Shown here: piece after piece, positions 852-24,786 of the stretch
Position numbering within the stretch: position 1 is the first letter of the stretch
Layout: the number at the start of each line of letters is the position of its first letter
From: Minisyncoccia bacterium
GTDB lineage: Bacteria > Patescibacteriota > Minisyncoccia > Phycocordibacterales > XYD1-FULL-46-19
Direction of reading: 5' to 3'
NCBI GenBank assembly: GCA_041601795.1
Contig: JBFIHK010000002.1
Coordinates: 1 to 47,544, forward strand
Length of the DNA stretch: 47,544 nucleotides
Notes under the pieces: generated by a model
What the model saw: the letters and a program-made list of their open reading frames with translations, nothing else
Database searches by the model: none
What the model was told of the DNA's origin: nothing
Position numbers and translations under genes: made by a program

Positions 852-1078
852 GTGCAGGATTCTCGAGCTACACTCGCTATGGTACCCCGCCATGCGTGCA
901 TGGCGGGGTCTTTCTAATTCGTGCAGGATTCTTTCATTACACAAACAGTATACCTTTGCGATTTTCTCTCGGCCAAGCCGCTCGAAAATAACGCAAAGCT
1001 TTTCGAATCCTGACATAACCCAAGCAGTTGGCTTATTCACGGGTCACATATAAATACTTTTCAGTATTTATAATTTTG
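852..1078 (-). repeat. tRNA-Lys-linked trailing element, two stacked modules (proximal 921-1078, distal 852-920)
   Basis: Sense remnants gtgcaggattc at 852-862 and 921-931 equal tRNA gene 1085-1095. Antisense box ttcgaatcctg at 1002-1012 is the reverse complement of 1088-1098. CTGC-loop hairpin at 1015-1036. Perfect 11-bp GC hairpin at 885-908. Confidence 0.7.
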
Positions 1079-2634: not shown

Positions 2635-3927
2635 TTATTCTTTTTTCGTATTGTTGTTTTTTCGTTGGGTCAGAATTTTTTCTAATTCTTCTTCTGCCAC
2701 CTTAGCATCACTCCAAGGCTCTTTGGCACCATTTTGGCGCATAATATAGGGGTCGGTACCCTTACCAGTGATGATAACCACTCCTTTAGAGGTAACTTTT
2801 GTTAAAGCTTCTTTAATGGCTAACCGTCTATCCATTTCGATTGTTTTAGGGGTAGAACTAATACCTTCTGCTATCATGTTTACTATTTGTTTTGGATCTT
2901 CATCATAAGGATCCTCATCGGTTAAAATAATGTGTTGGCAATGTTTGTCGGCCACTTTACCCATAGCAACTCTTTTTTGAGTGTCGCGCCCACCACCAGC
3001 TGATCCTAAGACGCAAACTTTTTTATAGTCTTTATAGAGGGAATATATTTTATCTAAAGAGTCGGCAGTATGAGCATAGTCAACAATTACATCAAAATCT
3101 TGATAAGGGGTTAAATTTTTGTTTTGGGGGTAAATTTTTTCTACGCGTCCAGGAATGCCGTTAAAATTTTCTAAACCTTTTTTAATTGTTGGTAAATCAA
3201 TATCTAAATGCTCAGCTATTTTAATAGCTGATAAGATATTGTACAGATTAAAAATACCAGCTAAATGACTTTGAATTTTTGTATTTTTGTAGGTAAAAAA
3301 TAAACCGTCGATAGTAGAAGTGTAGGGTTCGGCCTCTGTGAGGTGAGTTTGAATAATTTTTTCTAAAGGGGGTAGTTTTAATTTAAGACTTTCTTCGTCG
3401 TCGCCATTGGTAACTAAAATTTTATTTTTTTTAGGAGAATTTTTTAAAGTTTTAACTATTTTTAACTTAGCTTTAGTATATTTTTCATAAGAACCGTGAG
3501 ACTCTATGTGTTCTGGTGAAAGATTGGTGAAGATTAAACCATTTAAATAAATAAATTTATGTCGCCACTGCTTAGTGCCTTCTGAGGTCATTTCGATAAT
3601 GGCACAAGTGGAGCCTTTATGAACGGCTTCGTATAAAAACTTTTGCAAGAAAGCCCGTCCAGGCATTGTCATTTTTAATAAATTTGGTTTAGTGTCAGAA
3701 TTAATTTTAAAACGTAATGTCGAAGCAATGGTAGTTTTGTGACCAGCAGCCTCTAAAATAGAATTCAAAATTTCCACTGTACTAGTTTTGCCTTTAGTAC
3801 CAGTAATACCAATAGTTATTATTTTTTTAGTCGGAAAACGGTAATAAATAGCTCCACCTAAAGCAATTAGAAAATGATAAATAGAGACGATAAAATTAGG
3901 GGTTATTTTTTTTATTTTATTTAGCAT
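2635..3927 (-). CDS. murE: Mur ligase, UDP-N-acetylmuramoyl-tripeptide synthetase (MurE-like)
   Basis: P-loop GITGTKGKTST. C-terminal TDEDPYDEDP sits in the position of the MurE DNPR motif. Adjacent to a FemAB gene. Confidence 0.8.
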   Translation of the reverse strand: MLNKIKKITPNFIVSIYHFLIALGGAIYYRFPTKKIITIGITGTKGKTSTVEILNSILEAAGHKTTIASTLRFKINSDTKPNLLKMTMPGRAFLQKFLYEAVHKGSTCAIIEMTSEGTKQWRHKFIYLNGLIFTNLSPEHIESHGSYEKYTKAKLKIVKTLKNSPKKNKILVTNGDDEESLKLKLPPLEKIIQTHLTEAEPYTSTIDGLFFTYKNTKIQSHLAGIFNLYNILSAIKIAEHLDIDLPTIKKGLENFNGIPGRVEKIYPQNKNLTPYQDFDVIVDYAHTADSLDKIYSLYKDYKKVCVLGSAGGGRDTQKRVAMGKVADKHCQHIILTDEDPYDEDPKQIVNMIAEGISSTPKTIEMDRRLAIKEALTKVTSKGVVIITGKGTDPYIMRQNGAKEPWSDAKVAEEELEKILTQRKNNNTKKE

Positions 3928-8451: not shown

Positions 8452-8621
8452 AGGGAGGGATTCGGTCACAAATAATTCTCTTGCCGTCGCTCGAGAATTT
8501 CCGCGACCCCGGCTCGGCTATTCACACTGCTGTGTTAATTATGCCTGCGCCTTTCGAATCCCTCACGCGACTGAAGCAGTTCAGTCGCTCCTCTCCTTGT
8601 CAAAATTTTCAATTTTGCCTG
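8452..8621 (-). repeat. tRNA-Ser-linked trailing element
   Basis: Sense remnant 8452-8464 equals tRNA gene 8627-8639 (13 nt). Antisense box 8553-8564 ttcgaatccctc. 9-bp hairpin with CTGC loop at 8567-8588. Confidence 0.7.
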
Positions 8622-10381: not shown

Positions 10382-10543
10382 CAAAGAAAAAAGACGCTAT
10401 CAAGCGTTTTTTTTATTTGTGTTTCGGAGAAACTAAACTGCTTTAGTTTCGTGAGGTAATCGAAAAGGTTCTTCCTTACCGTCTCGCCGAATAGAGCGAG
10501 ACGGTGGAAAACCTGTACTGTTCCTGTAAGGAAAGATTCCCTC
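10382..10543 (+). repeat. tRNA-Arg(UCU)-linked trailing element
   Basis: 9-bp hairpin with CTGC loop at 10429-10450. Antisense box gaggtaatcgaa at 10453-10464 (11/12 to the complement of the tRNA T-arm). Nested hairpin at 10479-10504. Sense remnant gattccctc at 10535-10543. Confidence 0.7.
10386..10414 (+). terminator. Intrinsic terminator directly after tRNA-Arg(UCU)
   Basis: aaaaaagacgct-atca-agcgtttttttt. Confidence 0.55.
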
Positions 10544-10678
10544 TTGGTATTCTAAAACAAAACGTAAGTTTTGGCTGATTATATTTTAGTAGCCCCGGGA
10601 AGGAATCGAATTAGTAAGAAAATTTTATTTAAAACGTTATACAGTATAGTAAATAATTATTACTTAACTATCTTGTAC

Positions 10679-11369: not shown

Positions 11370-11645
11370 CTGAGGGACTCTCGAGCTACACTCACTGGTA
11401 CTTTTCGATTAAATATTCTTAATCAGATATTTAATAACGAAAAGTCTTTCGAGATACCCGTACTTTTTTTGGGACTCGGTCACAACTCTTCTGTTTCGAT
11501 AAATCTACACAACGAAGGTCGCGACCCCGTCTCAGCGACAAGTACTCACTTGGTTCGTCTTGTATACCGCTTCCGACCTTCGAGTCCCTCAGCGCCTACA
11601 AAACAAAAATATTCTAAAGCAATACTTTAGAATCTAATGTTTTTG
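11370..11645 (-). repeat. tRNA-Val-linked trailing elements, stacked modules (proximal 11471-11645, distal 11370-11470; older decayed copy likely 11246-11369)
   Basis: 17-nt antisense box at 11579-11595 is the exact reverse complement of tRNA gene 11649-11665. Sense remnants gggactcg at 11471-11478 and ctgagggactc at 11370-11380. Confidence 0.75.
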
Positions 11646-13161: not shown

Positions 13162-13304
13162 CAATTGAACAAAGTTTAAAATTGTACGCGAGAGGCGCAT
13201 CTGTTTTTTATAAAATAAAAAACAGGAGCAGGACTTGAAAAGACCCCGCCCTTCTAGAAGGGCGGGGTTGATGTGAGTTGACCCCAAGCCCCCTCGTTAC
13301 GCAC
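13162..13304 (+). repeat. tRNA-Leu-linked trailing element
   Basis: Antisense pieces cgcgagag(g) at 13187-13195 and aggacttgaa at 13230-13239, separated by an AT hairpin. GC hairpin at 13244-13267. TTGACCCC end. Decayed sense remnant aagccccctcgttacgcac at 13286-13304. Confidence 0.65.
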
Positions 13305-14308: not shown

Positions 14309-14519
14309 CAAAAATAATAAGTTTAAACTGAAAGTTTGAACGATTGTATTTTTGGTGTTGATCTATCCGGAATCGAAAGACGGAGGCGGTACACAAGACG
14401 AGGAGAAAAACGACGAGTGCTTGTCGCCGAGTCCGGGGAGGAAGCACTTAGTGAACGAAGACCGGAGGGATGAGTGAACTTAGTGACTTGACCCCGATTC
14501 CCGATAGGCACCCAAAAAT
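14309..14519 (+). repeat. tRNA-His-linked trailing element bounded by a perfect 24-nt direct repeat of the tRNA 3' end
   Basis: gattcccgataggcacccaaaaat at 14292-14315 and again at 14496-14519. Antisense box ccggaatcgaa at 14367-14377 (10/11). Confidence 0.8.
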
Positions 14520-22890: not shown

Positions 22891-23436
22891 ATGGCTAAAC
22901 AAGAATTAGATCAAGGTCGTAATTGGTATGCTATTCATACTTATGCTGGTTATGAAAATGCGGTTACTCGTAACTTGAAACAACGTATAGAGTCTTTAGG
23001 AATGGAAGATAAAATTTTTAATGTTTTAGTCCCAACAGAAAAAAAGGTTAAAATTAAAGCTGGGAAAAGAGTAGAGGAAGAAGAAAAGATCTATCCTGGT
23101 TATGTTTTGGTAGACATGATAGTAAATGATGATTCTTGGTATGTGGTTAGAAACACTCCGCGGGTGACTGGTTTTATTGGCTCTGGAGTAGTACCAGTAC
23201 CACTAGAAAAAGGAGAAGTAGATGAACTATTTCGTCGCATGAACTCAGATAATACTACTCATACTATAGATTTAACCCTAGATGAGGCTGTAACTATTGT
23301 TGATGGTCCGTTTAAAGATTTTGAAGGTAAAGTCAGTGAGGTGGATAATGCTAGAGGTAAAGTAAAAGTTTTAGTCACCATGTTTGGACGAGAAACACCA
23401 GTAGAGTTAGATTTTTTGCAGGTCAAAAAGATTTAA
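22891..23436 (+). CDS. nusG: Transcription termination/antitermination factor NusG
   Basis: WYAIHTYAGYENAV NGN start and a C-terminal KOW region. Confidence 0.92.
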   Translation: MAKQELDQGRNWYAIHTYAGYENAVTRNLKQRIESLGMEDKIFNVLVPTEKKVKIKAGKRVEEEEKIYPGYVLVDMIVNDDSWYVVRNTPRVTGFIGSGVVPVPLEKGEVDELFRRMNSDNTTHTIDLTLDEAVTIVDGPFKDFEGKVSEVDNARGKVKVLVTMFGRETPVELDFLQVKKI

Positions 23437-23482: not shown

Positions 23483-23905
23483 ATGGCTAAAAAAATAATA
23501 AAAAAATTAAAGTTACAAATTCAAGGTGGAGCCGCTAATCCAGCCCCTCCTGTAGGACCAGCTTTAGGACAAGCGGGTATTAATATTGGTGAATTTGTTA
23601 ATCAATTTAACTCGGCCACAGCTGAAATGAGGGGGGATGTGATCCCGGTAGAGATTTCAGTTTTTGAGGATAGAAGTTTTAGTTTTGTTTTAAAAACTCC
23701 TCCTGCTTCTCGCCTCATATTAAAAGCTGCTGGTATAGCTAAGGGTTCTGGTAAGAATTTAGTTAAGAAGGCTGGCAAAATTTCTATGGATCAAGTGAGA
23801 GAAATTGCTGAAAAGAAATTGGTTGATTTAAATGCTAGAGACATAGACGCAGCCGCTAAAACTATTGCTGGCACTGCTCGCTCTATGGGGGTGGAAGTGA
23901 AATAA
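23483..23905 (+). CDS. rplK: 50S ribosomal protein L11
   Basis: [16 protein letters not shown] motif. Confidence 0.95.
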
Positions 23906-23993
23906 GATACTTCCACTAGCCGGAACGCGACGGCGTGAGGCGGGCCTGCGCAATTTTTCAGCAGAAAAATATGTGTGAGTGGAAGTGAAATAA
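23906..23993 (+). repeat. Short element after rplK with sense-antisense-sense copies of the rplK 3' end
   Basis: gtggaagtgaaataa at 23891-23905 is repeated at 23979-23993. The antisense acttccac is at 23909-23916. Confidence 0.65.
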
Positions 23994-24018
23994 TTACTGT
24001 TACGAATAAATAAATTTA

Positions 24019-24055
24019 AAAAACAAAAATCCACCTAAGTGGATTTTTGTTTTTT
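24019..24055 (+). terminator. Intrinsic terminator of the secE-nusG-rplK operon
   Basis: aaaaatccac-ctaa-gtggattttt followed by gtttttt. Confidence 0.85.
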
Positions 24056-24120
24056 AACCAGTTTGTGGTAGTAATAAGTCTAGATTCTTTCACAATTAAA
24101 CACTAGAGGAGAAATAGGTT

Positions 24121-24786
24121 ATGTCTGATAATGGAGAACTGAAAAGCAAAATTAGAAGACTTAGTGTTGAAGCTTCTAATGCAAGCTCTTTGTCTTTTGA
24201 GGATCGTTACATCCAAGATTTGGAGGAAGCTAAAACAATAGTTGAAGCCATTCGTGTAGGAGGGTGTCGAATTGTGCTTACTTCAGGAACCTTTGATTTG
24301 GTGCATATAGGGCATGCTCGGTATGTATCTGAAGCTAAGAGAAGCGGCGATTTTTTGGTTGTTGGTGTCGACGATGACAAGAAAGCTAGAGGTCGCAAGG
24401 GCGAAAATAGACCCGTAGTGCCTGAGCTGGAAAGAGTCGAGATGTTGACTCATTTGCGTTGGGTGGACCTGGTTGTCCTCAAACGGCATGACGAGGAAAA
24501 ATGGGGTCTAATTAAACTGTTAGTCCCCGATGTTTTAATTATCGTTGAGGGGACTTATAAGCAGGAAGAAATCGATCAATTGGAGCGGTTTGTAGGTGAA
24601 GTCGTAGTTCTACCTCGTCAGGCGGATACAAGTACTAGTGCCAACGTCAGAAAAATGATGCTTGGCGGAGCGGATGATATGGTTAGACGCATTTTAGAAA
24701 TCTTACCTGTTAAACTGGCTGAACTGTTGAATGAACATGTTTCAAGTATTGTTCGTTCTACGTACGACGCCATGAAAAAGGATTGA
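24121..24786 (+). CDS. Cytidylyltransferase-superfamily nucleotidyltransferase, RfaE domain II / TagD-like
   Basis: IVLTSGTFDLVHIGHARYVSEAK...LVVGVDDD...RPVVPELERVEML...STSANVRKM parallels the HldE C-terminal adenylyltransferase (HxGH and ISSTxxR-like motifs). Confidence 0.75.
   Translation: MSDNGELKSKIRRLSVEASNASSLSFEDRYIQDLEEAKTIVEAIRVGGCRIVLTSGTFDLVHIGHARYVSEAKRSGDFLVVGVDDDKKARGRKGENRPVVPELERVEMLTHLRWVDLVVLKRHDEEKWGLIKLLVPDVLIIVEGTYKQEEIDQLERFVGEVVVLPRQADTSTSANVRKMMLGGADDMVRRILEILPVKLAELLNEHVSSIVRSTYDAMKKD

Follow-up and report, generated by a model that had tools for sequence, protein, structure and literature searches.

A structured 88-nucleotide insert at the rplK stop codon of a Minisyncoccia bacterium carries an antisense copy of the gene end and is related to elements behind tRNA genes

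The window analyzed here, a stretch of 47,544 nucleotides from the genome of a Minisyncoccia bacterium, contains a secE-like gene, nusG (22891–23436), rplK (23483–23905, forward strand), and then a cytidylyltransferase-like gene (24121–24786). The rplK reading frame encodes ribosomal protein L11, with matches to the Pfam families Ribosomal_L11_N (4e-26) and Ribosomal_L11 (1.9e-27). rplA does not come next after rplK; beyond the stretch at 23905–24121, the next ORF is the cytidylyltransferase-like one. At the 3′ end of rplK lies a sense–antisense–sense arrangement on the forward strand, whose parts we label S1 (the gene end), a loop, AS (the antisense segment), the core with helices P2, P3, and P4, and S2 (a second copy of the gene end). 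S1, GTGGAAGTGAAATAA (23891–23905), is the terminal 15 nt of rplK with the stop codon included, and its first 8 nt pair with AS to give the helix P1, the loop of which is GAAATAA plus GAT. The guide-like AS, ACTTCCAC(T) (23909–23917), is in its first eight positions (23909–23916) the exact reverse complement of 23891–23898, and as a 9-mer it additionally pairs with 23978–23986 in the context of S2. S2 (23979–23993) repeats S1 exactly, and the direct repeat extends to 20 nt at 90% identity (23886–23905 versus 23974–23993).

The core (23918–23978, with a size of 62 nt) was delimited by a covariance-model match, a consensus fold, the minimum free energy structure, and covariation. P2 joins 23919–23921 to 23939–23941 around an internal loop GGA/GA, P3 is a hairpin of 23925–23928 with 23933–23936 and the loop GACG, and P4 is a long hairpin (23944–23980) with its tip at 23953–23970. 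This GC-rich stretch contains CGTGAGG (23934–23940) and, at 23953–23970, the hairpin ATTTTTC-AGCA-GAAAAAT; it ends in ...ATGTGTGA (23971–23978). The native downstream flank follows directly 3′ of S2, and a 19-bp terminator-like hairpin of the rplK transcription unit (24016–24057) comes only after it. The exact repeat of 15 nt, the antisense octamer, the motif and hairpin between the two copies, and the position of the terminator had all been described in the original prediction, and sequence comparison bore out each of them.

The layout is real and not a chance arrangement. We searched the 613 stop-to-stop ORFs of 100 aa or longer in the genome of 563,632 bases for protein-gene ends of this kind, and rplK alone repeats 12 nt or more of its last 24 nt exactly within 150 nt downstream. 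A control with random pairing, run for 12,340 trials, gave copies of 15 nt or more in 5 trials and of 12 nt or more in 13. When the insert was compared with its own genome by blastn-short, the GC-rich part gave no second copy, and the U-rich hairpin alone recurred, in the module behind tRNA-Gly(tcc).

A genome of the same genus, G001, in which L11 is 91% identical, has its rplK stop codon joined directly to the sequence that follows S2 in the window, and the same terminator hairpin lies downstream. Pairwise alignment of the two loci leaves one clean gap of 88 columns with homologous flanks on both sides, the G001 flank aligning from S2 on. The gap marks what is evidently an insertion of 88 nt (23906–23993, forward strand) that is present in one congener and absent from the other; because of the direct repeat, any 88-nt window inside 23891–23993 would be an equally valid delimitation. 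An element lies at the rplK stop in 7 of the 30 loci compared among relatives. Four of the seven (our genome, G022, G009, and G033) have a core that we designate type R, and the other three (G038, G036, and G029, in the last of which it sits behind a terminator) have a core unrelated to it. In a sample of 401 genomes from the order, 10 had matches to a strict type-R pattern; inspection left true type-R cores in seven genomes, all at the rplK stop, one of which has an extra copy in another context. Two further rplK copies (L292 and L304) come from named Patescibacteria metagenome-assembled genomes (MAGs). As a regulatory structure of the L11 operon, which the original prediction had named as the finding that would count against it, the element would be expected to be conserved at rplK; it is not, given its presence at 7 of 30 loci with two unrelated cores.

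The end of the rplK insert resembles the ends of modules found behind tRNA genes, as had been proposed for tRNA-Ser and tRNA-Val: ...ATGTGTGA aligns with ...CCTGACC of the tRNA modules, and the Ser and Val copies also have a partial direct repeat of their target at the 3′ end of the core. A covariance-model comparison had been suggested, and the model that we built, R1, contains only six tRNA-linked cores of class F1 from our own genome. R1 matches the window at 23918–23980 end to end (model positions 1–88), on the correct strand and in the correct place, with a score of 23.4 bits and an E-value of 4.5e-3 over 224,448 bases searched, E-values from our home-made, short-calibrated models being rough. 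With filters off over 19,171 bases, this copy scored 23.4 bits (E 3.9e-4) and L030 28.3 bits (E 2.6e-5); the next best match reached 8.8 bits and the empty site L002 at most 7.2 bits. The larger search gave 22 matches; 21 fall on module cores and are oriented as expected, and the remaining one overlaps a module core on the opposite strand. Among these matches are the rplK inserts L004, L041, L003, L037, L038, and L033 (E 5e-5 to 3e-3). In total, R1 detects relatives of the window copy at the rplK stop in nine further genomes of Patescibacteria.

The consensus fold of the six tRNA-linked cores consists of P2 with its GGA/GA internal loop, the P3 hairpin, and a long P4 whose 3′ strand runs up to the junction, and eight rplK inserts have this same fold preceded by P1, formed by S1 and AS. 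Model and fold together show the core of the rplK insert to be homologous to the tRNA-linked cores and a short member of class F1. It shares with that class the core fold, the position of AS directly 5′ of the core, the abutment of S2 on the core, and variation between presence and absence. Since the insert belongs with the tRNA modules, elements of this family also settle at protein genes. The proposal that the family is not strictly tRNA-specific therefore stands on the R1 match and the other rplK copies, whereas its second half, that a target must itself be able to form a hairpin, does not: it is with the element's own AS that the gene end makes the hairpin, and the target need not fold alone. 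A second model, R2, built from nine tRNA-linked cores of classes F3 and F4, also matches the three rplK-linked elements with the unrelated core, two of them clearly (L024 at E 6e-6 and L023 at E 6e-3) and the third weakly (L008 at E 0.36), values as rough as those of R1, so two distinct core classes of tRNA ends have each reached the rplK stop.

In our genome, the superfamily occupies the 3′ ends of most tRNA genes, of the tmRNA gene, and of rplL. At least 20 of the 38 tRNA genes called by ARAGORN carry modules, counted by an uncurated k-mer criterion (an antisense copy of at least 9 nt, a direct copy of at least 11 nt of the gene's own 3′ end downstream, or both). Downstream of the tRNA, a module begins with a spacer that often includes a terminator, followed by a segment antisense to the acceptor 3′ strand and then by a hairpin whose loop is often AACTGCTT. 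Next come an antisense of the T arm ending in ...TCGAA, a GC-rich core of 60–130 nt belonging to one of several classes, and finally a repeat of the 3′ part of the tRNA, with its start in the T loop. The window holds one or two such modules after each of tRNA-Lys (860–1077, reverse strand), tRNA-Ser (8452–8620, reverse), tRNA-Arg(tct) (10383–10545, forward), tRNA-Val (11370–11644, reverse), tRNA-Leu(gag) (13163–13290, forward), and tRNA-His (14310–14515, forward). Occupancy differs sharply between our genome and G001: the Arg-cct, Asn, and Gln-ttg sites are empty in one and filled in the other, and the Cys, Gly-tcc, Phe, Asp, and Leu-taa sites have different core classes. Some tRNA sites carry tandem modules of which the older is truncated, and at the tRNA-Met site the native downstream flank comes directly after S2. 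The tmRNA gene (contig C6, about 3192–3574) has on the reverse strand a module of class F4 (C6:3029–3106) and a second, degenerate one.

The layout recurs at the stop codon of rplL, which encodes L7/L12 as identified by Pfam, in at least 5 of the 32 sequences examined. These include a short F1 core in G035, tandem units displaced by a newer insert in G036, and a 21-nt perfect antisense directly after the stop in G033; G038 and our own genome (contig C9) have a further core class in common. Our own rplL module, on the reverse strand downstream of the stop near C9:14485, is made up of CTTTTC (antisense of GAAAAG), a core of about 64 nt, and a diverged copy of the gene end, GTGGAAAAGTTGAATTAAAGTAA. 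It was missed by the exact-repeat search described above because its S2 has diverged.

Covariation supports the proposed fold. In 65 model-aligned copies, 98.7% of cells are paired, compared with 76.5% after shuffling and no more than 51% when partners are slid, and compensatory changes occur in 29 of 32 pairs; these figures lean toward the model because the alignment (A4) was fitted to it. A G-U pair 5 bp from the junction is conserved in 61 of 64 sequences. For the rplK insert, the predicted minimum free energy is −34.9 kcal/mol on the forward strand (z −3.3) and −24.8 on the reverse strand, and all copies have the same orientation relative to their own target gene. The structure of the element is thus read on the sense strand of the gene. 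The core is 64–94% identical between genomes (at least 76% in the 15 pairs that exclude G334) and more conserved than the last 400 nt of rplK (61–74% identical) in 20 of 21 pairs; the downstream flank of the insert is about 50% identical.

The antisense segment varies together with the gene to which it is attached. In ten rplK copies, the octamer at the gene end takes five forms (GTGGAAGT, GTCGAAGT, GTGGACGT, GTCGACGT, and ATCGACGT), and AS is the perfect complement of the local octamer in nine of the ten, with one A-C mismatch in G052. Compensatory changes occur in three columns of P1 among the rplK inserts, and S2 equals S1 in only two of the ten copies. In each host, AS matches the end of that host's gene. 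Selection for an RNA hairpin, instead of targeting, could account for this match, and the high conservation and covariation of the core would fit an RNA that is useful to the host equally well. Such an RNA would act in cis from the 3′-untranslated region: the hairpin of S1 and AS, with the stop codon in its loop, would join P2–P4 in stabilizing or processing the 3′ ends of abundant transcripts, and a switch between AS:S1 and AS:S2 pairing might operate when the ribosome reaches the stop codon. It could also be a domesticated former mobile element, so a mobile origin is compatible with this role.

We judge this host role, whether 3′-end protection or a translation-coupled switch, to be unlikely on balance, although it remains a serious rival. 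The strong covariation with the G-U pair conserved on the sense strand, a core conserved beyond the coding sequence, and an AS that keeps up with the evolving gene end are what it would lead one to expect; wobble pairing with AS remains allowed at about 7 of the 12 differences that separate S2 from S1 (by hand tally), and the targets (tRNA, tmRNA, rplK, and rplL) are all abundant RNAs of translation. Against it, most relatives, including G001 of the same genus, lack the element, as the small yield of the strict pattern also indicates (10 of 401 genomes, seven of them true type R), and the same site has been taken by unrelated core families. Moreover, a terminator stands between the gene and AS in several tRNA copies, so that the two need not be co-transcribed. 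At tRNA-Arg(tct), the orthologous copies differ in that AS has decayed in our genome relative to G001, and the tandem and truncated copies resemble the debris of parasites.

The explanation that we consider probable is that the 88-nt block is an integrated copy of a small, structured, protein-less element that is mobile but non-autonomous, that finds its target by base pairing, and that regenerates the gene end on insertion. The element would be mobile still, or have been so recently. We infer that the target is chosen by pairing of AS with its sense strand, because complementarity to AS is the sole feature common to more than 20 different targets. The junction between core and S2 falls 1–3 nt inside the 5′ edge of the AS-complementary stretch at rplK (G|GTGG...), at rplL, and in the common tRNA classes (TTC|GA...), and 7 nt inside it in one tRNA class. 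In the scheme that we propose, the moving unit would be S-spacer-AS-core, for example as a circle arising by recombination between S1 and S2, and its S:AS hairpin would mimic the target duplex. With a crossover placed at the left edge of S, the gene would acquire an equivalent, element-borne end (S1), and the native end would be shifted downstream as S2, where it would then decay. Under this scheme, AS would track S1 because the element supplies S1, and elements would survive only at the 3′ ends of essential genes because the gene end is regenerated and the native one displaced. Catalysis could be provided by a host enzyme such as the one Xer-like tyrosine recombinase, by an enzyme acting in trans, or by the nucleic acid itself.

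The geometry of the guide also calls to mind an intron. Group I and II introns use an internal guide sequence (IGS or EBS) that pairs with the sequence upstream, and the 3′ flank can pair with the same guide in a P1/P10-like manner. By analogy, AS would pair first with S1, as in P1, and then with S2 as the 3′ exon, as in P10; everything from the S1 junction through the last nucleotide of P4 would be excised from the RNA, either autocatalytically or with a host RNase and ligase, and the element would spread by reverse insertion into abundant RNAs. A guide that spans the junction and has S1 and S2 as alternative partners, a P4 that ends exactly at the junction with a conserved G-U pair 5 bp away, and the bias toward very abundant RNAs all accord with this view. 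The case is nevertheless weak and the reading highly improbable, since the 62-nt core is far below the size of any known self-splicing intron and lacks a catalytic core of such size. At the gathering threshold, Rfam 15 returned only tRNAs from the window, and E-value scans of 23700–24200 and five tRNA modules gave only chance hairpin hits, with no ribozyme or intron among them; a search of our genome (98% complete) for reverse transcriptase (PF00078) found none. The upstream copy of the gene is complete without splicing, and many S2 copies are only 7–12 nt long, so splicing would destroy the tRNA. Two apparent insertions within tRNA genes (L166 and L158) were considered as intron-like cases and discarded, each being a partial 5′ tRNA pseudo-copy with a module upstream of an intact gene.

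Likenesses to integrating islands must be weighed as well. Direct repeats of a gene 3′ end are the usual mark of integrase-mediated insertion in tRNA and other conserved genes, and the islands and phages that insert at the 3′ ends of tRNA, tmRNA, and protein genes share with our elements the targets, the restored gene end, the partial copy displaced downstream, and, for the tRNA copies, a boundary in the T loop. They differ in being kilobases long with an integrase of their own, whereas the elements here are 60–190 nt long, contain no ORF, and have an internal antisense copy of the target. The layout might therefore be the relic of an ordinary event, either the att-site scar of an integrase island or a template switch during replication that duplicated the gene end in both inverted and direct orientation, and the genome does encode one tyrosine recombinase. 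We give this reading almost no credence. The whole element is 88 nt, and a conserved, covarying fold is common to dozens of copies in many genomes. More than 20 distinct target sequences show the same architecture, and in every case AS fits its target, an outcome that neither protein-only site recognition nor random slippage would yield. A phage origin was likewise rejected: the type-R pattern had no hits in IMG/VR, and the 29 hits of the F1 pattern there lie inside GC-rich coding regions and are chance matches.

Returning to the probable reading of a guided mobile element, we surveyed our genome for enzymes that might move it. Searches found no IS110-type DEDD recombinase (PF01548) and no TnpB-type nuclease (PF07282), the enzyme of TnpB/IscB omega-RNA elements, in our genome. 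The search for reverse transcriptase, negative as stated above, likewise sets the insert apart from retroelements (group II intron, SINE-like, or DGR), and Y1 HUH transposases (PF01797) gave no matches in either our genome or G001. Y1_Tnp proteins of 220–260 aa do occur in 26 of 41 relatives, with up to five copies, and an IS200-like transposase was considered as the mobilizer. We rejected this candidate: Y1 counts are unrelated to module counts across the 41 genomes, our own genome (G000), G001, and G010 have many modules and no PF01797 protein, and the genomes in which Y1_Tnp is most numerous (G003, G021, and G034) have no hits to the AACTGCTT...TCGAAA module pattern. The single Xer-like recombinase is a Phage_integrase-family ORF of 308 aa (C5:4349–4864), and no connection between it and the elements was seen.

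Closest in logic among known systems are the guides of IS200/IS605 and sites that act as folded hairpins, but the element lacks defining features of those families. IS200/IS605 elements, PATEs, and REP/RAYT systems are small and strand-specific, have hairpin ends, and include non-autonomous copies moved in trans. In IS200/IS605, a guide of about 4 nt at the foot of a subterminal hairpin within the element pairs with the target or cleavage site at the left flank, no target is duplicated, and a Y1 HUH transposase is required. The rplK element and its relatives are similarly small and structured, with an internal guide that base pairs with the target. They differ in the length of the guide (8–24 nt versus about 4 nt), in a direct repeat of 15–20 nt where those families leave no target duplication 3′ of a 4–5-nt target, in the lack of Y1 HUH proteins from our genome and its congener and of any tie to element load in the 41 relatives, and in sharing no sequence or Rfam similarity. 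Integron attC cassettes and CTX-phi-type elements integrate as folded single strands whose hairpin site mimics the target duplex, and they form tandem arrays. Their layout after insertion is also sense–antisense–sense: behind the target site, a variable structured center is bounded by an inverted copy and a direct one. This arrangement and the tandem units are shared, as would be, in our scheme, the hairpin as target mimic. Those systems, however, rely on a single fixed site sequence, which IntI or XerCD recognizes, whereas here the paired sequence varies with the target (more than 20 tRNAs, tmRNA, rplK, and rplL), and our genome encodes only one Xer-like recombinase.

With group I and II introns, the likeness lies in an antisense guide for the sequence just upstream and a 3′ flank that serves as its alternative partner; the differences are those given above. 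Elements of the IS110/IS1111 type choose their targets in a programmable manner through a structured non-coding part, the bridge or seek RNA, which requires a DEDD recombinase and guides that read both strands around a 2-nt core. Nucleic-acid-guided choice of target through a structured non-coding part is the feature in common, but our genome has no such recombinase, and the target duplications of 15–50 nt seen here have no counterpart in IS110/IS1111. Search listings and the openings of abstracts contained no description of elements of the present kind.

A broader claim, which we put forward tentatively and hold to be possible more than probable, is that these are previously undescribed miniature elements of Patescibacteria that use a guide of 8–24 nt to home to the 3′ ends of essential genes of translation (tRNA, tmRNA, rplK, and rplL), rebuild the gene end on insertion, and have no known transposase, recombinase partner, or reverse transcriptase. 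Were this so, they would represent a new chemistry of nucleic-acid-guided insertion, catalyzed by the host or by the element and retargetable through the guide, and tiny elements targeted by base pairing that leave the target gene intact would be at work in a large, little-studied bacterial radiation. The logic of group II introns, CRISPR-associated transposons, and bridge RNAs would then be compressed into 60–130 nt with no dedicated protein visible. The rplK copy indicates that the same cores can serve an ordinary coding sequence with a changed guide, and the arrangement is therefore not peculiar to tRNA structure. For annotation, the elements fill much of the intergenic space around the tRNA genes of these reduced genomes, and they may affect 3′-end formation of the most abundant RNAs.

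R1 cores are found in 30 of the 41 relatives, with a maximum of 13 per genome, and of the best R1 hits, one per genome, 19 of 29 have a tRNA called by ARAGORN within 260 nt upstream. A scan of species-representative genomes gave at least 120 stretches, 80 of 120 of which were taken to R1 filtering; among the matches listed, at least 49 have an E-value of 1e-3 or better (rough, as above), and these listed matches come from MAGs of Saccharibacteria, Paceibacterota, Minisyncoccia, Adlerbacteria, Kaiserbacteria, and Nomurabacteria. Among the 44 listed matches that could be analyzed, 32 follow a tRNA at a distance of no more than 300 nt, and 2 are located at the rplK stop.

Some F1 cores occur in other surroundings. 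On the reverse strand of contig C4 (9218–9387), two tandem F1 cores are intergenic with no intact tRNA upstream; the sequence before them resembles a degenerate tRNA-Glu 3′ end (…GAGCTCAC), and the loop that separates S1 (TCACAAAACG) from AS (CGTTTTGTGA) contains the AACTGCTT hairpin. Partial 5′ copies of tRNA-Ile and tRNA-Ala genes in L158 (G029:C3) and L166/L173 (G022:C3) each contain an interrupting short F1 core and lie immediately before the intact tRNA genes, in what looks like a mirror-image arrangement on the 5′ side. A recurrent non-tRNA context of short F1 cores has the form ...(C/T)TGAAATGC-loop-GCATTTCA(A/G)|core, also written ...TTGAAATGC...GCATTTCAA|, with a possible RNA-like gene upstream; it was seen in five loci from named Patescibacteria MAGs (L234, L260, L265, L284, and L300) and also in L164 and L169.
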